Positions 2,517 to 36,660 of a stretch of 36,660 nt of DNA are shown piece after piece; positions within the stretch are counted from its first letter, which is position 1; the number at the start of each line of letters is the position of its first letter. Position numbers and translations under genes: made by a program. A model generated the notes under the pieces. That model was not told the DNA's origin. It did not search any database and saw nothing but the letters and a program-made list of their open reading frames with translations. The stretch is taken from the UHGV virus genome UHGV-0183637; one strand, written 5' to 3'. The DNA comes from a virus.

Positions 2517-4559
2517 GTGTGGTTTGTAGTGCGGGATTGCCTGGGATTATCCGGTTTTCCATCAGCAGAAAAAAACATCCGGGCACGTCTGGATCGTCTT
2601 GCTGAAAATAACCCGGAATGGAAGCGCAAGCGTGAAGGCACCAAAGCATTCGAGTATCGCATCGACTGCCTGCCCGCTGAAGCGCAGAAAGTTTTACGTA
2701 AGCGCCTGACCCATCAGGTCCTGGAAGATGCACAACTGCCCGCCGTAGTTGAGCAGAAAGCAGTTAAAAACGTCGCCGTTCGCGATGAACTGGAGGTGAT
2801 GGTCAAATGCCCGGAGCTGGCATTACGCGAAGTCCAGTCACTGACCGACAAGCAAAAGGCCATCGCTGATGCGCGGATATTGCTGGCTACTGAAGTGCAT
2901 AAGCTGCGCGAGTATGCCGGAATGACCAGGAAGGCCGCTTTAAAGCACATCGTTGATGGTGTGCGCATGGGGGCGTTACCTGACCGCATTATCGAAGCAG
3001 CGAATACTGCAAATGCACGTCAGGGAAAGCGAACCGGTGTCAGCACCGGCAGCCTGGATAGCTGGTACTCCAGCTGGGTGATGGCGCGCGGTGATGCCAA
3101 TCAGTTACTGGCGTTACTGGCTCCCGGTCATCATAAGGGAACACCGTGGGAGCAGGTCTGGTGGTTGAGCGATTTCTTTATGTTCTATCGCTCATGGAAG
3201 CGCCCGACCGTTGAATACGCGTATCGCGAGTTTTCAGCCTGGTGGCATGAAAAACACGCGAATGATGCGGGAATGCTGGCGGCACTGCCTTCAGTTCACG
3301 CAGTAAGACGGGTGTTAAGCAGCGTCCCGGTGATTGTTAAAGAGCGTTTCCGCTCCACCGGTTCAGCCTGGCGTTCGCTCAATCCCTTTGTGCGGCGCGA
3401 CTGGACATCGCTACCGGTTAATGCGGTATGGGTCGGAGATGGTCACTGTATGAAAATGACCGCGTTTAACCCCCTGACCGGCAATATTTTCCGGCCAGAA
3501 GTGACGCTGGTTATGGATGCGGGGCAGCGTTTTGTTGTGGGATGGTCACTGTCCCTGTCGGAGAACGTGATAGCTGTTGCTGATGCGTTGCGTTACGGCA
3601 TGGCGCAGCACGGGATACCGCTGATTTATTACTCCGATAACGGGGGCGGTGAAAAAAACCGGGTTCTTGATGCCGATATTACCGGGATTCTCCCCCGGCT
3701 GGGTGTGGAACATCACACGGGGATACCAGGTAACCCGCAGGGGCGCGGGGTGATTGAAAGGCTTAACAAGGAAATTCCCCGGGATGTGGCCCTGAGTTTC
3801 CAGACGTACTGCTCAAAGGGAGCAGACAAGGAAACCGTAATGATGCAGCAACGGATTATGCAGTCAGCCATTAAGGCCACCCACAAAGGGAAAGAACTGA
3901 CAAAACGGCAGGTTAAGGCGAGGGATGAAGTCCCCACCTTTGAGCAACTGATGGCAGCCATAGAACTGGAGGTCAGACGCTATAACAACCGGCCACACAG
4001 CAGCCTTCCCCGCAAAGAGGATGGCGAATATTACAGCCCGGCAGCGTATCGCCGGAAACTGATAAAAGAGCAGAATGTTGAAATTGATTTCCTGTCGCCG
4101 GAAGAACTGCATGAAATGTTCAGACCGGAAGTGACGCGCAAAACATTTCGCGGGGAAATTCAGTTATTCAACAATATTTATTACTCGTATGAGCTGGCCG
4201 CAGAGCACGGGAATGAAGTCAGGGTCAGTTACGATATTCATGATGCAAACAGCGTCATTGTCCGGCGGGCTGATGGCTCTTATATCTGCGATGCCATCTG
4301 GAACGGTAACAAGGTTGATGCCTTCGCTAAACCAGTTATCGAGCAAAAACTGGAGAAACGCGTCAGAGGCCGCATTGCACGGGCCGCGCAGAAAATCGAA
4401 GAGGCTAAACGCGAGCTTACCCCGGCTATTACGCAGAAGCCTGAGTTTAATCTGGGATATGGACTGGAACGCCAGGAGAAAAAGGAAAAAGAAGAACTTT
4501 ATTTATTCGCATCTGAACGCGAGCGCAATTTAAAGAAAAACGGCACAAACAACCGTTAA
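2517..4559 (+). CDS. Mu-type DDE transposase (MuA-like)
   Basis: 680 aa, GTG start after an AAGGTGGA RBS. N-terminus M-WFVVRDCLGLSGFP parallels MuA MELWVSPKECANLPGLP (enhancer/operator-binding domain). Central region WVGDGH...LVMDAGQRFVVGW...YYSDNGG is consistent with a Mu-family DDE core. Confidence 0.9.
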   Translation: MWFVVRDCLGLSGFPSAEKNIRARLDRLAENNPEWKRKREGTKAFEYRIDCLPAEAQKVLRKRLTHQVLEDAQLPAVVEQKAVKNVAVRDELEVMVKCPELALREVQSLTDKQKAIADARILLATEVHKLREYAGMTRKAALKHIVDGVRMGALPDRIIEAANTANARQGKRTGVSTGSLDSWYSSWVMARGDANQLLALLAPGHHKGTPWEQVWWLSDFFMFYRSWKRPTVEYAYREFSAWWHEKHANDAGMLAALPSVHAVRRVLSSVPVIVKERFRSTGSAWRSLNPFVRRDWTSLPVNAVWVGDGHCMKMTAFNPLTGNIFRPEVTLVMDAGQRFVVGWSLSLSENVIAVADALRYGMAQHGIPLIYYSDNGGGEKNRVLDADITGILPRLGVEHHTGIPGNPQGRGVIERLNKEIPRDVALSFQTYCSKGADKETVMMQQRIMQSAIKATHKGKELTKRQVKARDEVPTFEQLMAAIELEVRRYNNRPHSSLPRKEDGEYYSPAAYRRKLIKEQNVEIDFLSPEELHEMFRPEVTRKTFRGEIQLFNNIYYSYELAAEHGNEVRVSYDIHDANSVIVRRADGSYICDAIWNGNKVDAFAKPVIEQKLEKRVRGRIARAAQKIEEAKRELTPAITQKPEFNLGYGLERQEKKEKEELYLFASERERNLKKNGTNNR

Positions 4560-19998: not shown

Positions 19999-20546
19999 GC
20001 AGCGGTAAACTGGATATTAAGATTGATTTAAGCGCGTATAACACCACGCTGGGGAAACTGATTAGTTCCGTGAAGGACCGGCGCGACCTGATGACGGCGC
20101 TTGCAGGCTCCATGCTGGATGCGGTTGAGACTAACTTTGAACAACAGGGTCGCCCGAAATGGATGGGCTGGAGTCCGGCTTATGCGAAGCGACGCGGCCC
20201 CGGGCAAATCCTTCAGAAGTCCGGGCGACTGGCTGCCAGTATCCGCTCTGCGGTTAACAATAACGAAGCCACGGTCGGGACAAACGTCCGTTATGCCCGT
20301 ATCCACAACGAAGGCGGCGAAATCCGCCATCAGGCACGGACGCAGAACCTGTATTTTAAACAGTACAAAAACGGCAGCGTCAGCAGCCGTTTTGTGAAAA
20401 AGCGCAACAGTAATTTTGTGCAGAGCGCAACGGTCGGAGCGTATACAGTCAACATGCCCGCGCGTCCCTTCCTTCAGCTTGTGCAGGACGACATCGACGA
20501 GCTGGAGAACACCGCAAACCGCTATTTTGCGCGTGTGATTGACTGA
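19995..20546 (+). CDS. Virion morphogenesis protein (Mu G-like)
   Basis: 183 aa; ATGA overlap with the F-like gene; Mu G position. Confidence 0.75.
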   Translation: MSSGKLDIKIDLSAYNTTLGKLISSVKDRRDLMTALAGSMLDAVETNFEQQGRPKWMGWSPAYAKRRGPGQILQKSGRLAASIRSAVNNNEATVGTNVRYARIHNEGGEIRHQARTQNLYFKQYKNGSVSSRFVKKRNSNFVQSATVGAYTVNMPARPFLQLVQDDIDELENTANRYFARVID

Positions 20547-20701
20547 ATGACCAGAAACGCGCTGTAATCGCCTGTGACAACATAAACGCCTCACGGATGA
20601 GGCATAACAGCACTGCACCCCGTAAATGCTGTCAGAATCGTTTTTAAAAGGGTTTTAAAAACGGTTTTATTTCCCCTTTTATCCTTTCGCGTTATGGCAG
20701 G

Positions 20702-20714
20702 GTGCTGAACACCC
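20702..20714 (+). promoter_or_regulatory. Conserved 13-mer GTGCTGAACACCC, copy B (putative late promoter upstream of the protease/scaffold gene)
   Basis: Exact 13-mer in a 200-bp intergenic gap inside the otherwise compact head operon, 33 bp upstream of ATG 20747. Confidence 0.5.
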
Positions 20715-20746
20715 TCCACAGTACCCCGTGCTCCCCTTCCGTCATC

Positions 20747-21871
20747 ATGCCGCGTATGAAGATGAACATTGCGGCATTAAGCCTCGAAATCACCAAAGCA
20801 ACCCACAGCGAAATCCAGCTGTTTCCGGCAGGCGAGTTCAGCGCAGTGGATGGTCGCCCACATACCGATGAAGTCGAAAGCGGTAAATGGGTGCTGACTG
20901 CCGAACTGGCCGCGCAGCTTGTCGCACAGGTGGCAGCCCGTACCACGCCTTTTGTCATTGATTACGAACATCAGACGCTGCGCGCCGTAAACAACGGCAA
21001 GCCCGCCCCGGCGGCGGGCTGGTTCAGCCAGGTGGAATGGCGTGAAGGTGTGGGCCTGTATGCCATCGGTGTGGAGTGGACGGAGAACGCGGCGGCCATG
21101 ATTGCCGCCGGTGAGTACAAATTTATTTCCCCTGTTTTTGCCTACAACAAGCGCGGCGAAGTGCTGGAGCTGTTACATGCTGCGCTGACCAATACCCCGG
21201 CGCTGGACGGTATGGACGCGGTCATGCTGGCTGCGGCCAGTCGTCTGGCGAGTCTGTCAACTGAAACGGAGACCACAACGGTGGATGAAGAACTGTTAAA
21301 CAATTTGCTTTCCGACCTGCGCTGGATGCTTAACCTCCCGGTGACCTCAACGGCGGAAGATATCAAAAACGAGCTGCAAAAGGTCGTTGACATGATTTCG
21401 AACGGTCAGGGAACGGCGGCGGCATCCGTCAGCCTGCTGGCCCTGCTGAATCAGAAAGACGAGCAAATCGCCAGCCTGTCAGCAAATGCCTATGACCCGA
21501 CGAAGCATATCCCTCTGACGGCATATGAAGAACTTCAGGGGCGTTATGCCGCACTGGCGCAACAGTCCGGTGAGGCCGAAGCCGGGGCACTGATTCAGGC
21601 GGCGCTGTCTGACGGACGCCTGCTTCCGGTACAGGAAGACTGGGCGAAAGATTACGCCAGCCGCGATATCAACGGTTTTAAAACATGGCTGGAAAAAGCG
21701 CCGAAAATTGACGCGCTCAGTCAGACCCAGACCGGCGGCAAGCCACCCAAAACGCCGTCGCCTGCCCCGGCGCAGATTAAAACCGGCGATGACGTCGATG
21801 TCGATATCGCCATTTGTTCAATGATGGGCGTCGATCCAGAGGATGTCGCCCGTTACGCAGGAGACGAGTAA
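20747..21871 (+). CDS. Head maturation protease/scaffold protein (Mu I-like)
   Basis: ATG at 20747 (the track's GTG at 20702 lies inside the promoter-like 13-mer); about 374 aa; position between G-like and major head genes. Confidence 0.75.
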   Translation: MPRMKMNIAALSLEITKATHSEIQLFPAGEFSAVDGRPHTDEVESGKWVLTAELAAQLVAQVAARTTPFVIDYEHQTLRAVNNGKPAPAAGWFSQVEWREGVGLYAIGVEWTENAAAMIAAGEYKFISPVFAYNKRGEVLELLHAALTNTPALDGMDAVMLAAASRLASLSTETETTTVDEELLNNLLSDLRWMLNLPVTSTAEDIKNELQKVVDMISNGQGTAAASVSLLALLNQKDEQIASLSANAYDPTKHIPLTAYEELQGRYAALAQQSGEAEAGALIQAALSDGRLLPVQEDWAKDYASRDINGFKTWLEKAPKIDALSQTQTGGKPPKTPSPAPAQIKTGDDVDVDIAICSMMGVDPEDVARYAGDE

Positions 21872-22267
21872 ATGGATCGCAATACCCCCTACCGTGACGG
21901 CGAACTGAATCCGGTGCCGGTTGCCGCTACGACCGAAATTTTTGGTGGTCATATGGTGGCCGTTAACGCATCCGGTTATGCCGTTCCGGCCAGTGCCACG
22001 GCCTCACAGATTACGCTGGGCGTGTCTGATGGCTGGGTGGATAACAGCAAGGGCAGCAATGGCGACGCCACCGTTCTGGTGCGTTGTGGCAAAGCCTTTC
22101 TGATGGCGAACAGTACCTCAGACCCGGTCACGCAATCGCAGGTTGGTCAGGAATGCTACGTGGAAGACAGCGTGACCGTGGCAAAAACCGACAACAGCAG
22201 CGCCCGTCCTGTCGCCGGGAAAGTGATCGGCATCGGTGACGATGGCGTCTGGATTCATTTCAGTTAA
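21872..22267 (+). CDS. Hypothetical head protein
   Basis: 131 aa between the I-like and major head genes. Confidence 0.6.
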   Translation: MDRNTPYRDGELNPVPVAATTEIFGGHMVAVNASGYAVPASATASQITLGVSDGWVDNSKGSNGDATVLVRCGKAFLMANSTSDPVTQSQVGQECYVEDSVTVAKTDNSSARPVAGKVIGIGDDGVWIHFS

Positions 22268-22277
22268 GGAGCAAAAC

Positions 22278-23186
22278 GTGTTAGTCAACGTTAAAAACGT
22301 CAAACAGATTTTTATCAATCTGAAGGCCACCTTCCAGAAAGCCTTCGACCAGTCACCAACTGACTGGCAGAAGGTGGCAATGGAAGTGCCATCAAACGGC
22401 AAGGAGAACGACTACAGCTGGTTAAGTCGTTTCCCGAAAATGCGCGAGTGGATTGGTGACAAGGTCGTCAAATCACTGGCGGCATTTAACTACACCATCC
22501 GTAACAAGGACTGGGAAGCCACGGTTGAAGTCGATCGTAACGACATCGAGGACGACCAGATTATGGGCTATGCCCTTCAGGCAAAAGGCGCCGGACAGTC
22601 GGCGGCAGAACTCCCGGCAGATATTGTGGCGTCCCTTATCAGTAACGGTTTTACCAATCCCTGTTACGACGGTCAGATGTTCTTTGATACCGACCACCTG
22701 GTCGCCGGTAAATCGGTGTCCAACAAAGGTACCAAAAAACTCAAAGTTGGCTCGCTTGCCGAGGCGAAAGCCTCCTACGGTGCCGCCCGTACGGCCATGC
22801 GTAGTCTGAAAGATGACGAAGGCGCATCCCTCAAAATTCGCCCGAATCTGCTGGTTGTGCCACCGGCGCTGGAGGATGACGCGAACTACCTGATGACCGC
22901 CGAGAAGTTCCCGGACGGCACGCCGAACCCGTACCGCAATACCGCCGAAGTGCTGGTGATGCCGGAGCTGGCGTCGGATTCTGCGTGGTTCCTGTTTGAC
23001 ACCACCAAACCGGTGAAACCGCTGATTTATCAGCTGCGTAAAAAGCCTGTTTTTGTGGAGCAGACGGACTACAACAGCGACAACGTGTTCAAGCGTAAGA
23101 AGTTCCTGTTTGGTGCCGAAGCGCGCTGTAACGGCGGTTACGGCTTCTGGCAGATGGCATTTGGTTCAGATGGTACGACGGAGTAA
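22278..23186 (+). CDS. Major head subunit (Mu T-like)
   Basis: GTG at 22278 after AAGGAG (track start 22236 is upstream in frame); about 302 aa; position and size of Mu T. Confidence 0.8.
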   Translation: MLVNVKNVKQIFINLKATFQKAFDQSPTDWQKVAMEVPSNGKENDYSWLSRFPKMREWIGDKVVKSLAAFNYTIRNKDWEATVEVDRNDIEDDQIMGYALQAKGAGQSAAELPADIVASLISNGFTNPCYDGQMFFDTDHLVAGKSVSNKGTKKLKVGSLAEAKASYGAARTAMRSLKDDEGASLKIRPNLLVVPPALEDDANYLMTAEKFPDGTPNPYRNTAEVLVMPELASDSAWFLFDTTKPVKPLIYQLRKKPVFVEQTDYNSDNVFKRKKFLFGAEARCNGGYGFWQMAFGSDGTTE

Positions 23187-23189
23187 TGC

Positions 23190-23531
23190 ATGGAAAAGGT
23201 GATTGAAATTACCGCCCGCCGTGAGGGTTTTCGCCGCTGCGGTGTGGCACACAGCGCAACCACGAAGGCATGGCCTGCGGATGCGTTCACCCCGGAACAG
23301 CTGGCGGTGCTGAAGGCTGACCCCATGCTGATTGTGGTGGAGCGTGATAAAGCGTCCGGCCAGAACGACGCGGACCAAAGTGATGAACTGGTCGCACAAC
23401 TGGATGCCGAACGCCAGAAAGTCAGCGAACTGACGGCGCAACTGGAAGAAGAACGCCAGAAAGTCAGTGAACTGACCGCACAGCTGAACGCCGCACAGAA
23501 AACACAAAAAGCGGACAAAAAGGAGAAGTAA
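23190..23531 (+). CDS. Hypothetical head-associated protein with coiled-coil C-terminus
   Basis: 113 aa; C-terminal half contains a tandemly duplicated 14-aa unit ERQKVSELTAQL(EE/NA). Confidence 0.6.
   Translation: MEKVIEITARREGFRRCGVAHSATTKAWPADAFTPEQLAVLKADPMLIVVERDKASGQNDADQSDELVAQLDAERQKVSELTAQLEEERQKVSELTAQLNAAQKTQKADKKEK
23409..23492 (+). repeat. Tandem direct duplication, 2 x 42 bp, inside a coding sequence
   Basis: GAACGCCAGAAAGTCAG(C/T)GAACTGAC(G/C)GC(G/A)CA(A/G)CTG... appears twice back to back with a few substitutions. Confidence 0.6.
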
Positions 23532-23534
23532 CCC

Positions 23535-23966
23535 ATGTCTTACGCCACACCGGAACAGTTCATCAGGGCGTTCAGTGAACGAGAGGCACGCACACTGACG
23601 GATGAAGACATGACGGGATTCATCGACGAAGAAAAGCTGGCCTCCGCGCTTGCGCGCGCCAGTGCCCAGATTGATGGCTATCTGGTGGGGCGTTACCGGA
23701 CCCCGTGGCCTGACAGCCCGGGGATTCTGGTGGGTTACTGCTGCGATATCGCCCGTTACCACCTGGCGACCGATTACCGTATCTGCTCAGAAGAAATTCA
23801 GATGCGCTACCGGGACGCCATCCGCTTTCTGGAGAAAGTCGCGGCAGGACAAATCAACCTCGGGCGGGATACGTCCGGCAGCGTGATCCAGTCATCGTCA
23901 CAGGTGCGTATCCGCTCCGGCTCCCGTCAGTTCGGGCGTGAGTCCACGCGGGGAGGTGCATTCTGA
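23535..23966 (+). CDS. Mu gp36-like protein (DUF1320)
   Basis: 143 aa; position after the major head gene; resembles the gp36 family (from memory). Confidence 0.65.
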   Translation: MSYATPEQFIRAFSEREARTLTDEDMTGFIDEEKLASALARASAQIDGYLVGRYRTPWPDSPGILVGYCCDIARYHLATDYRICSEEIQMRYRDAIRFLEKVAAGQINLGRDTSGSVIQSSSQVRIRSGSRQFGRESTRGGAF

Positions 23967-24616
23967 TTACTGACATTGAACGGGCGCTGGTTGAGCGTCT
24001 GCGCTGTGGTCTGGGGCATATGGTGCAGGATGTCCGCACCTATGCCGGTGAACTGGATGAAGACCCGGGCCGGATTGTTCGCAGCCTTCCGGCAGCCTGG
24101 GTGACGTTCGGCGGCATCGTGAAAACCGAACGCTATTCCACGTCACGCCGGAAATACATTGCCACCGGACGCTTTGTGGTTGTGGTGGGTGATTACAACA
24201 CCCGCAGCGAACAGAGCGCCAGACAGGGAGGCACCGTCCGGGATGAGGTCGGTACAAACCTGCTGGTTGAATCCGTCCGTCGCCTGCTGACCGGTCAGGA
24301 TTTGGGGCTGGAGATTGATTATTTCGAACCCGGGCGGGTCAGGACGCTGTTTAACACCGGCGTGGCAGAGCGGGCAATGTCCGTGTTTGCCTGTGAGTTC
24401 GATACCCGCTGGGTGGAGCACGCGCTGGAGAATGGCAAATGGCCGGAGCGCGGCGCAGAAGCGGATCGTCTCTTCAACCGCTACCACGGCAGGCTGTCAG
24501 ACCCTGACCCGGAACTGCTGAACCTTGGCATCCGGTACCAGATGCAGGACAGCGACGCTGAAATATCAGGGCTGACTGAATTAAGAGAGCAACAGCATGA
24601 ACAAAATGAAGGTTAA
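23966..24616 (+). CDS. Mu gp37-like protein (DUF1834); start codon uncertain
   Basis: The track ORF starts at ATG 24020, but the frame is open and protein-like (ITDIERALVERLRCGLGH) back to the stop of the previous gene, with only ATT/CTG as possible starts there. Confidence 0.65.
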   Translation: MTDIERALVERLRCGLGHMVQDVRTYAGELDEDPGRIVRSLPAAWVTFGGIVKTERYSTSRRKYIATGRFVVVVGDYNTRSEQSARQGGTVRDEVGTNLLVESVRRLLTGQDLGLEIDYFEPGRVRTLFNTGVAERAMSVFACEFDTRWVEHALENGKWPERGAEADRLFNRYHGRLSDPDPELLNLGIRYQMQDSDAEISGLTELREQQHEQNEG

Positions 24617-24839
24617 GGCGGCTTCCGGGATGAAGTTCCCGATGGAGGATAACGCCCGGAAATACATCACCACGGAAGCGGTGACTGTTGAGAACACCGC
24701 TTATTACCGGCGCGCCGTTCAGGACGGTGACCTGATTCTGGTGAAGGATGAACCTGAAGCCACCGAGGTGGCTGAACAGGACGCCGTGCAGGTAAAAGCG
24801 AAGGCGAAGAAAGAGAAACAGGTGGGTTCCAATGAGTGA
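24597..24839 (+). CDS. Hypothetical small protein (Mu gp38 position)
   Basis: 80 aa immediately upstream of the sheath gene, overlapping it by 8 nt. Confidence 0.6.
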   Translation: MNKMKVKAASGMKFPMEDNARKYITTEAVTVENTAYYRRAVQDGDLILVKDEPEATEVAEQDAVQVKAKAKKEKQVGSNE

Positions 24840-36071: not shown

Positions 36072-36660
36072 ATGTCTGTATTGATCTCAGGGGCGCTTAT
36101 TAATGGCGCTGGCGTTCCGATGGCGGAATGCAAAATTTATTTAGATGCACTGGTTAATACCAGTGAAGTGGTTATTGAATCATTTGCGGTTATTGAAACC
36201 GATGCGGCGGGACAGTATGCCTTTGAGGCGCAAAAAGGCAAATACACCGTACACATCAAGCAAAAGAACGGCCCCAAGTGCTGTGTGGGTGACATTTCGA
36301 TTTACGACGATTCAAAGCCCGGCACACTGAATGATTTTCTGACCGCCCCCGATGAAGGCGACCTCAAACCCGACGTGGTGAAACGCTTCGAGGAAATGGT
36401 GGCGCAGGCGCAGCAGAGCGCGGAAGCGGCAGCGGAAAGCGAGCGGCTGGCAGAACAGCACGTTACTGATGCGCAGAAGATTAAGGATGACTGTCAGACG
36501 CTGGCGAATAACGTACAGCAGAATGCAGAGGCCGTTGCCGAAGACAAAAAGCAGGTGGCGTTACTGGCATCATCAGCTTCGCAGGATGCGGCCCGCGCAG
36601 AGCAGGCCGTTAAGGACGCAGACAAAATCGTCGATAAGGCTGTTGATAAACTCGGTGAAG
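36072..36660 (+). CDS. Side tail fibre protein, N-terminal part (lambda Stf-like; continues beyond window end)
   Basis: ATG 36072, open to the window end; MSVLISGALINGAGVPMAECKIYLDALVNTSEVV...IYDDSKPGTLNDFL parallels the lambda Stf N-terminus, followed by an Ala/Gln/Glu-rich repetitive region. Absent from the ORF track because no stop lies in the window. Confidence 0.8.
   Translation, partial: MSVLISGALINGAGVPMAECKIYLDALVNTSEVVIESFAVIETDAAGQYAFEAQKGKYTVHIKQKNGPKCCVGDISIYDDSKPGTLNDFLTAPDEGDLKPDVVKRFEEMVAQAQQSAEAAAESERLAEQHVTDAQKIKDDCQTLANNVQQNAEAVAEDKKQVALLASSASQDAARAEQAVKDADKIVDKAVDKLGE

Follow-up and report, generated by a model that had tools for sequence, protein, structure and literature searches.

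In the Mu-like Pseudomonas siphophage JBD30, the gene that follows the major head gene encodes gp39, a 113-residue 'minor capsid protein'. In approximately 5/12 of the particles, gp39 homotrimers occupy the threefold and quasi-threefold axes of the capsid, which is of the Mu type with T=7 (PMC11445458). Residues 1-52 of gp39 are disordered, while the ordered part combines a sheet of three strands with a helix and a hairpin stapled by a disulphide; the fold has been likened to the β-tadpole of T4 Soc, both proteins forming trimers at threefold sites (PMC11445458). In the cryo-EM study of phage Mu itself, gp35 was listed as probably structural yet left unresolved, the capsid was described as having no cement proteins, and gp36 was given the role of adaptor (PMC11915804).

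We analysed a viral DNA of 36,660 nucleotides (UHGV virus genome UHGV-0183637; this whole stretch is hereafter called the window), which contains a gene in the position of Mu gene 35. A sequence-only reading of the window had pointed to an in-frame 42-bp tandem duplication in this gene, regarded it as possibly recent and length-variable between strains, and placed it in a predicted coiled-coil segment. We describe below the locus, the repeat and the encoded protein, and then weigh what the protein might do on the virion.

The gene and its prophage setting

The whole window corresponds to a complete Mu-like transposable prophage, with genes for a repressor, MuA-like and MuB-like proteins, portal, F, G, protease/scaffold I, tape measure and further late functions. 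The gene that carries the repeat (23190..23531 on the plus strand, stop codon included) is preceded by a GGAG motif about 7 nt 5' of its ATG and encodes a 113-residue Mu gp35/HI1506-related protein, with a FluMu_N domain and a match to phrog_6188 (E 1e-51); the length of the host protein was therefore correct in the sequence-only reading, as was its assignment to the head region. Indeed, the gene starts 3 nt past the stop codon of its upstream neighbour, which encodes the Mu-like major head protein gpT (22236..23186, plus strand; Pfam Mu-like_gpT, E 8e-95; phrog_371, major head protein), and stops 3 nt before the gene for the Mu gp36 head-tail adaptor (23535..23966, plus strand; Pfam Phage_Mu_Gp36, E 4.5e-33; phrog_195, head-tail adaptor), which is itself followed by the gp37, DUF2635, sheath and tube genes. 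The same order, with one gene between gpT and gp36, is found in SfMu, in Klebsiella phage ST405-OXA48phi1.1 and at the loci L028, L029 and L031. Since SfMu gp35 occupies the same slot between T and gp36 and also matches FluMu_N (40.8 bits), the 113-residue protein is the equivalent of gp35.

Among 12 distinct 342-bp alleles of the gene, 28 of the 42 variable sites fall at codon position 3, and this concentration identifies the plus-strand frame 23190-23531 as coding. Long ORFs that run over the region on the minus strand were considered and set aside as shadows, the third-position variation fitting the plus-strand frame.

Upstream of gpT, the Mu-like protease/scaffold gene gpI (20702-21871) is followed by a gene for a 131-residue protein (21872..22267, plus strand; phrog_1731, 'virion structural protein', E 4e-56), which might be a second decoration or cement protein. 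In Klebsiella phage ST405-OXA48phi1.1, the gene in the equivalent slot, between the gpI-like and head genes, is annotated as a 'capsid stabilizing protein', a match of position and not a comparison of homology. The 131-residue neighbour gave only faint hints in Pfam and no relative in the PDB, and no NCBIfam model matches it, the 113-residue protein, JBD30 gp39 or SfMu gp35.

Of 5426 complete E. coli genomes, 55 contain the gene, under the RefSeq name 'HI1506-related protein'; the best match, that of UMNF18, is 99.4% identical over the gene, and E2348/69 carries the 110-residue allele. In a collection of isolated phages, positions 20000-26000 of the window had no nucleotide match, and protein comparison returned just four weak matches to the N-terminal domain.

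The tandem array: identity, age and copy number

TRF reported, at 23385..23493 of the plus strand, a tandem array of 2.6 copies with a period of 42 bp (77% matches, score 141). In the register of the sequence-only reading, the full units lie at 23409-23450 (GAACGCCAGAAAGTCAGCGAACTGACGGCGCAACTGGAAGAA) and 23451-23492 (GAACGCCAGAAAGTCAGTGAACTGACCGCACAGCTGAACGCC) and encode ERQKVSELTAQLEE and ERQKVSELTAQLNA, respectively; in the TRF register they lie at 23385-23426 and 23427-23468 and are followed by a partial unit. The array as a whole is translated as ELVAQLDA-ERQKVSELTAQLEE-ERQKVSELTAQLNA. Because the upstream ELVAQLDA is a partial unit, there is a third in-register copy and the array is somewhat longer than first reported; a repeat search found the three in-register copies, starting at 23385, 23427 and 23469.

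The two full units are identical at 34 of 42 nucleotides (81%) and at 12 of 14 residues, so that the qualification 'near-identical' given to them earlier applies to the protein and not to the DNA. The first 12 codons contain four differences, all of them synonymous, and the last two codons differ non-synonymously (EE versus NA). An identity of 34/42 at a lag of 42 was reached in none of 200 shuffles, which rules out a chance or artefactual origin of the repeat, and no second site across the whole window attains it. Together, the TRF result, the 34/42 match and the shuffle control leave the in-frame 42-bp tandem repeat at 23409-23492 firmly established. A perfect 17-mer, GAACGCCAGAAAGTCAG, is common to both units (at 23409 and 23451); it has no further copy in the rest of the window, and the unit has no dispersed copies.

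We then compared the units with each other and with those of homologues. Over their first 12 codons, units 1 and 2 show 4 differences at about 8.7 synonymous sites (pS ~0.46) and none at about 27 non-synonymous sites; pS in the N-terminal domain is 0.05-0.08 among E. coli alleles. The same four synonymous differences between units recur in most of the 113-residue alleles examined. The two-unit end, ERQKV..LT..LE. ERQKV.DLTAQLEA followed by KKGK, is kept in homologues down to about 38% identity (alignment A1), with E74, L81, L85, E88 and L95 nearly invariant (same alignment, to 38-40% identity), and homologues at 38-42% identity end in ERQKVSELTTELEG-ERQKVTDLTAQLEA-ATKKGK. The 110-residue allele classes of E. 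coli, Salmonella and Citrobacter and a 104-residue E. albertii protein have two units each, the second being more diverged (27-30/42). As judged from these comparisons, the array is old and is under purifying selection at two full units in the lineage of the window. The duplication is thus not a recent one, given the synonymous divergence of about 46% between units, its recurrence across alleles and the conservation of the end to about 38% identity.

The history of the array nevertheless appears to have been eventful at its 3' side. Between the window and the 110-residue alleles, pS is 0.05-0.08 in the N-terminal domain, 0.19-0.25 in unit 0 plus unit 1 and 0.52-0.64 in unit 2: the 3' unit and the tail are far more divergent between the 113- and 110-residue classes than the remainder of the gene, and, by this measure, look recombinant between allele classes. 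Identities between units, such as the 35/42 shared by unit 3 of L028 and unit 2 of L020, suggest orthology at the level of the single unit. The divergent 3' unit and the unit-level orthology together point to gain, loss and exchange of units on an old scaffold, and not to a single fresh duplication.

Copy number is close to fixed among close relatives. All 55 complete E. coli genomes with the gene have a 342-, 333- or 330-bp form, each with two units (the 330-bp form has no QLNA), and two units were found in all the IMG/VR alleles read. A degenerate DNA pattern for two units matched 16 viral and 7 metagenome contigs (23 matches), and a pattern for three units matched no viral or metagenome contig, a zero count that is a lower bound on variation since the pattern is strict and misses units of the L036 type (GCC for ACN). 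A scan of genome contigs yielded three loci only, two of them distant, and is of little use for copy counts.

Departures from two units do occur. The E. coli assembly GCA_026723045.1 (L036), whose contig begins inside the gene, has a perfect extra 42-bp unit (85-126 being identical to 127-168). Copy number is 3.4 in L028, an 86%-identical relative, and 4.9 (at 86% match) in the more distant relative L029, both genes lying in the slot between gpT and gp36; P0028 has three units, on a 687-bp contig that is too short to show its neighbours. Among 60 homologues from a large protein search, the longest in-register chain comprised two units in 37, three in 5 and five in 1. E. coli proteins of 127-129 residues (P0008, P0015 and P0019) had been taken as candidate three-unit alleles and proved to be frameshifts in the A-rich tail that run past the stop codon into the gp36 gene.

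Copy number, as far as these sequences go, is something that shifts only rarely between related prophages. The earlier suggestion of a length-variable locus is borne out by L036, L028, L029 and P0028 and fails among close relatives, which are fixed at two (55/55 genomes; 23/23 pattern matches); the identical two-copy arrangement that had been named as the mark of an ancient feature is largely what close relatives show. A variable-number tandem repeat or contingency locus was discarded on account of this near-fixed copy number, to which L036 is the sole exception among close strains, and a phase-variation locus because unit identity is only 81% and 42 is divisible by three. Not being a hot variable locus, the array is of little use for telling strains apart or for inferring recent adaptation.

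Protein architecture and kinship with JBD30 gp39

The protein begins with an alpha/beta domain of the FluMu_N type (aa 1-53; 23190..23348, plus strand), delineated by AF2, Foldseek and hhalign and putatively the capsid-docking domain. Residues 8-50 match Pfam FluMu_N (PF17891) with 32.5 bits, against a gathering cut-off of 25.8 (E 7e-8). Modelled alone by AF2, the domain reached a pLDDT of 93, with strands at 3-9, 14-16, 19-21, 26-29 and 47-53 and a helix at 35-43, and Foldseek matched the model to HI1506 (2OUT) with a probability of 1.00, a TM score of 0.63 and an rmsd of 3.1 Å over 56 columns. In the full-length AF2 model, built on a 31-sequence alignment, the alpha/beta domain (3-53) is followed by a single predicted helix of 58 residues (54-111). 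The pLDDT is 86-91 across the repeats and dips to 64-68 in an acidic/polar linker at the start of the helix (aa 54-65; 23349..23384, plus strand), which is also the most variable part of the protein among alleles (7 of 9 variable sites are amino-acid-changing). The protein closes with a lysine-rich tail, AQKTQKADKKEK (aa 102-113; 23493..23528, plus strand), in which K110 and K113 are nearly invariant in alignment A1 and small indels distinguish alleles (QKTQKADKKEK versus QKADKKEK). A Lys-rich tail closes most representatives of the family.

Each 14-residue unit (ERQKVSELTAQLEx) amounts to two heptads. In the best register, the a/d positions are occupied by L,L,E,V,L,L,E,V,L,L, with Glu at every fourth core position, and the 3.5-residue hydrophobic periodicity has a power of 0.91 versus 0.45 +/- 0.23 in shuffles (p ~0.04), a modest signal. 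The coiled-coil segment predicted from the sequence was thus recovered as an AF2 helix with heptad phasing, at this modest level of significance. A single alpha-helix of the ER/K type was rejected: the charged fraction (33%) is too low, and there is a clear V/L stripe. Both the modest heptad signal and the recurrent core Glu weigh against the stalk model favoured below.

A set of links connects the N-terminal domain to JBD30 gp39. In the PDB, gp39 (chain 8RKC_B) bears the name 'Mu-like prophage FluMu N-terminal domain-containing protein'. The Pfam FluMu_N model matches gp39 with E 9.3e-5 and 22.5 bits, below the cut-off of 25.8, and a protein 76% identical to gp39 (P0216) carries PF17891 and the RefSeq name 'HI1506-related'. 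When the two families were compared as profiles by hhalign (A2 versus A3), residues 4-50 aligned with residues 56-102 of gp39 over 47 columns (92.8%, E 3.8e-7). The aligned stretch is the whole ordered domain of gp39, the register places the predicted hairpin 14-21 on the Cys67-Cys72 hairpin, and the order of secondary structures in our model agrees with the published description of gp39. It is from the name, the Pfam match, P0216 and the hhalign alignment that we infer a capsid decoration role for the N-terminal domain; by this homology to gp39, the 113-residue protein is probably a capsid decoration protein.

Foldseek searches of the PDB with the full-length and N-domain models (E <= 10) returned 2OUT and not 8RKC, and searches of the PDB and BFVD gave no meaningful match beyond 2OUT and one FluMu_N protein of an uncultured phage. 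The subfamily profile matched gp39 in the PDB weakly (14.4 bits). A local HMM made from 225 N-terminal domains gave 16.1 bits for gp39 and 16.6 for SfMu gp35, the best of 5000 shuffles reaching 14.1; as this HMM is not discriminating, the Pfam model and the profile-profile comparison are needed. In the hhalign register, the capsid-contacting residues of gp39 (E91, S95, D96 and K100) align with A39, A43, D44 and I48, only the Asp being kept. The capsid proteins of JBD30 and of the window are 33-43% identical and not colinear, and co-variation of the contact residues with the capsid protein is possible. The absence of 8RKC from the Foldseek results, the weakness of the subfamily profiles and the conservation of one contact residue in four are points against decoration.

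The N-terminal domain is common to 968 representative clusters, and 141 of the 142 representatives examined match FluMu_N; the 113-residue protein is an ordinary member of this known family. Distal to the domain the family is highly diverse: coiled coils of widely differing length, low-complexity arms, HeH motifs and other small motifs are all found there. Adjacent internal repeats are present in 63 of 202 family proteins, with periods of 8 to 42 residues, and relatives of JBD30 gp39 have a 33-residue tandem duplication in the disordered arm. The accessible literature holds no mention of HI1506, FluMu_N or PF17891 and nothing relevant on coiled-coil repeats in Mu-like capsids; nor does it, the JBD30 paper included, connect gp39 with Mu gp35 or HI1506.

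A candidate capsid stalk, its alternatives and known systems

On balance, we favour the explanation that the array is old and builds the helical stalk of a gp35-type head protein that sits on the capsid as a trimer. The protein comprises three parts: the conserved FluMu_N domain, a predicted helix built from the repeats, about 58 residues and roughly 8-9 nm long, and the Lys-rich tail. The 42-bp repeat encodes this periodic alpha-helical stalk at two heptads per unit, the a/d positions being filled by V/L, L, L and a conserved Glu. The N-terminal domain would dock the protein on the capsid, and the three helices of a trimer would pair into a coiled-coil stalk projecting from the shell, with the basic tail at its tip. 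Units may be gained or lost by slippage or by unequal recombination between 42-bp copies and, because 42 bp correspond to two heptads, each such event would leave frame and heptad phase intact. In standard coiled-coil geometry, two heptads span about 2 nm, and the gain or loss of one unit would shift the length of the stalk by this amount.

The distal part varies two- to three-fold in length within the family, on capsids built from a similar gpT of 300 residues. Given this variation, it is unlikely that the distal part is fitted into the capsid lattice, and a coiled-coil trimer projecting from each decoration trimer would be the simplest model.

A wider and more tentative proposal, which we hold as possible but not likely, is that FluMu_N proteins (Mu gp35, HI1506 and about a thousand clusters at 50% identity) form a general, modular family for display on capsids. 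The 50-residue domain would anchor trimers on threefold axes and a hypervariable distal module would point outward, being here a trimeric, repeat-built coiled-coil 'head fibre' whose tip is basic, and in other members a HeH motif, a small domain or a disordered arm. Such modules would evolve mainly by in-frame tandem duplication, and adhesion or capsid stabilisation would be served by adjusting the length of the fibre two heptads, or about 2 nm, at a time.

Some further observations go against decoration. The capsid of Mu has no cement density, and the authors of that work suggested a connector-related role for gp35 (PMC11915804). The order of domains is reversed relative to JBD30 gp39, so that the helices of a trimer might fail to converge, and the 131-residue 'virion structural/capsid stabilizing' protein might itself occupy the threefold sites.

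Two alternatives concern the site of action of the protein, and either would leave the reading of the repeat unchanged. The protein might be associated with the neck or connector, or be a head completion protein in contact with DNA, FluMu_N lying near the portal and the helix and Lys tail (or HeH in relatives) binding the end of the packaged DNA. We consider this unlikely. In its favour, the gene is directly 5' of the adaptor gene gp36, the suggestion made for Mu gp35 goes in this direction (PMC11915804), and HeH motifs are found in relatives (5 of 142 representatives; Pfam HeH, E 5e-9 in P0104), the tails being mostly basic. Yet the homologous domain is on the threefold axes of the capsid in JBD30, the sole relative whose virion has been resolved; the JBD30 connector consists of portal, adaptor and stopper only, with DNA touching neither adaptor nor stopper (PMC11445458); and the Mu connector maps contain no extra protein (PMC11915804). 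Alternatively, a scaffold-like or chaperone coiled coil could act in head assembly and be lost afterwards. A coiled-coil protein encoded in the head module, a weak Pfam Phage_scaffold match in 3 of 142 representatives, the existence of frameshifted and truncated alleles in prophages and the failure to see the protein in Mu virions (PMC11915804) would all suit such a factor, which we nonetheless judge improbable, since a protease/scaffold gene, gpI, is already present upstream, the Phage_scaffold matches probably reflect generic coiled-coil similarity, and JBD30 gp39 is found on mature capsids and is absent from procapsids (PMC11445458). In favour of a role in DNA contact, one may add that nucleic-acid binding was reportedly proposed in the structure paper on HI1506.

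The other alternatives bear on the repeat itself. A recent tandem duplication, creating a locus of strain-variable length in this prophage lineage, is a very improbable origin and is largely refuted for the allele of the window: perfect 17-bp repeats 42 bp apart do offer a substrate for slippage, and L036 with its perfect extra unit and the relatives with 3.4 and 4.9 copies attest that units can be added, but the divergence of the units at synonymous sites, repeated from allele to allele, and the two-unit end, conserved to 38% identity and found in every one of the E. coli genomes and pattern matches counted above, oppose it. That the repeat acts as a DNA or RNA element (an array of binding sites, a regulatory RNA or a recoding signal) can practically be discounted. 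Beyond the existence of a direct repeat, nothing argues for it; Rfam, promoter-like and terminator-like scans of 22900-24100 were all empty, the 17-mer occurs nowhere else in the window, variation between alleles falls at third codon positions with amino acids kept, and direct repeats do not fold on themselves, the inverted repeats nearby being short only.

Taken alone, such a repeat is nothing unusual for a coiled-coil protein. The main gain is that the uncharacterised 'HI1506-related' or Mu gp35 proteins of many Mu-like prophages become tied to a decoration protein already visualised on capsids by cryo-EM, and that the distal part of the FluMu_N family is found to be built and resized through tandem duplication. 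If the stalk model is true, Mu-type heads would carry natural display scaffolds of adjustable length, and the model would help to explain an ORF that the structural work on Mu left unassigned.

The system most like the present one is that of JBD30 gp39 (PDB 8RKC/8RQE). Both proteins are 113 residues long, and in each case the gene lies between those for the major head protein and the adaptor in a Mu-like phage. They share the FluMu_N-type domain of about 50 residues, and both bear a variable extension that contains Lys and changes through tandem duplication. They differ in that gp39 has its disordered N-terminal arm before the domain, whereas in the protein of the window the domain comes first and the helix follows; the arm of gp39 is rich in Pro, Thr and Asp and disordered, whereas the extension considered here is a predicted coiled coil; and the cysteines of the hairpin disulphide, like most capsid-contact residues, are not kept in the latter. 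Binding to the capsid, seen by cryo-EM for gp39, is a putative property of the protein of the window.

HI1506, the FluMu gp35 of Haemophilus influenzae (NMR structure 2OUT), shares the fold of the N-terminal domain (TM 0.63; profile E 4.7e-6) and the equivalent gene slot in a Mu-like prophage; it is said to continue with an unstructured linker and a small three-helix C-terminal domain, unlike the long repeat-built helix found here. The gp35 of Mu and SfMu shares the slot between T (gp34) and gp36 as well as FluMu_N, but its C-terminal module is a different globular motif (GEPKVKAVSAALG...) and has no 14-residue repeats. T4 Soc, for its part, has no detectable sequence relationship with the protein and no coiled-coil stalk.

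Outside phage heads, the nearest parallels are the streptococcal M proteins and the stalks of trimeric autotransporters, in which in-frame tandem repeats correspond to whole heptads, so that a change in the number of units resizes the rod and keeps its register. The loci that encode these proteins are highly strain-variable and immune-selected; by contrast, the array of the window is near-fixed in close relatives and its units have diverged.

Mosaic 3' end and frameshifted or truncated alleles of the gene

The 3' end of the gene for the 113-aa FluMu_N/HI1506-related head protein (23190-23531, plus strand) is mosaic. We compared positions 23451-23531 of the window, i.e. the second full 42-bp unit and the Lys-rich tail, with positions 3001-3333 of the homologous loci L016/L020. 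When the window allele is set against the 110-aa alleles, the synonymous difference is 0.05-0.08 in the N-domain but climbs to 0.52-0.64 in the second unit, and the tails of these alleles differ by a 9-bp indel (QKTQKADKKEK versus QKADKKEK). Taken together, the synonymous jump and the tail indel suggest that a recombination junction lies inside the 42-bp repeat array. The tail of L036, an E. coli assembly with an extra 42-bp unit, contains a 12-bp mini-repeat, AAAGCGGACAAG. Elsewhere in the window, TRF reported two short tandem repeats: one of period 22 (2.0 copies) at 28272-28314, inside the tape-measure gene (27093-29456), and one of period 18 (2.1 copies) at 36170-36207, close to the right end.

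Frameshifts or truncations were observed among the E. coli homologues (P0008, P0015, P0019, P0024, P0029, P0032, P0051 and P0057). The E. coli forms of 127-129 aa arise from a shift of frame within the A-rich codons of the Lys tail, with the stop codon being read through into the start region of gp36 (...GEVTHVLRHTGTVHQGVQ). These frameshifted or truncated alleles reflect either sequencing errors or gene decay in resident prophages. The Trabulsiella odontotermitis gene (L003 and L027, positions 3001-3308) is probably a frameshifted copy: query residues 1-107 were matched at 72% by tblastn, and the ORF read from the start codon ends after 34 aa. Two of the 57 places where E. coli genomes carry the 113-aa protein gene lie on plasmid records of about 249 kb (NZ_OZ547097.1 and NZ_OZ547049.1), indicating that the type of Mu-like prophage found in the window also resides on large plasmids.

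The major head protein and the ORF upstream

Alignment of the product of the gpT major head gene (22236-23186) with the Pfam Mu-like_gpT model showed that the window protein departs from the colinear order of Mu-type gpT: residues 23-165 correspond to model positions 2-149, residues 188-243 to positions 232-287, and residues 247-313 to positions 152-218. Because the last two matches are out of model order, two segments, each about 60 aa long, have exchanged places relative to SfMu gp34 and JBD30 gp38, both of which are colinear with the model. The same split match pattern was observed in the homologues from L028 and L029, relatives with 3.4 and 4.9 repeat copies, and from locus L031. The exchange may represent a circular-permutation-like rearrangement within an HK97-fold capsid protein.

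Between the protease/scaffold gene and gpT lies a 131-aa ORF (21872-22267), which hits phrog_1731, a family described as 'virion structural protein'. The positional counterpart of this ORF in a Klebsiella phage is labelled 'capsid stabilizing protein'. No gene occupies this position in Mu, SfMu or JBD30. The ORF product could be another cement or decoration protein. Since its end overlaps the listed GTG start of gpT by 32 nt, and since gpT homologues are called at 300-302 aa, the actual gpT start is probably downstream of that GTG.

Domain architecture of FluMu_N relatives

Among the relatives of JBD30 gp39 (family A3), P0203-P0211 are distinguished from L035:3591-3932 by a 33-aa tandem duplication (TEKPKDDTLPDSTD...AKP) within the N-terminal arm, which is disordered. 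P0228 has a small domain of the ERD-AW type ahead of the arm. Some family representatives (P0061, P0063, P0065, P0073, P0077 and P0152) contain two tandem FluMu_N domains, followed in many such members by a C-terminal domain with the motif 'GKPKV.A.E...V...ERD.AW'. SfMu gp35, the FluMu_N protein of the Mu slot, also bears this motif at its end.
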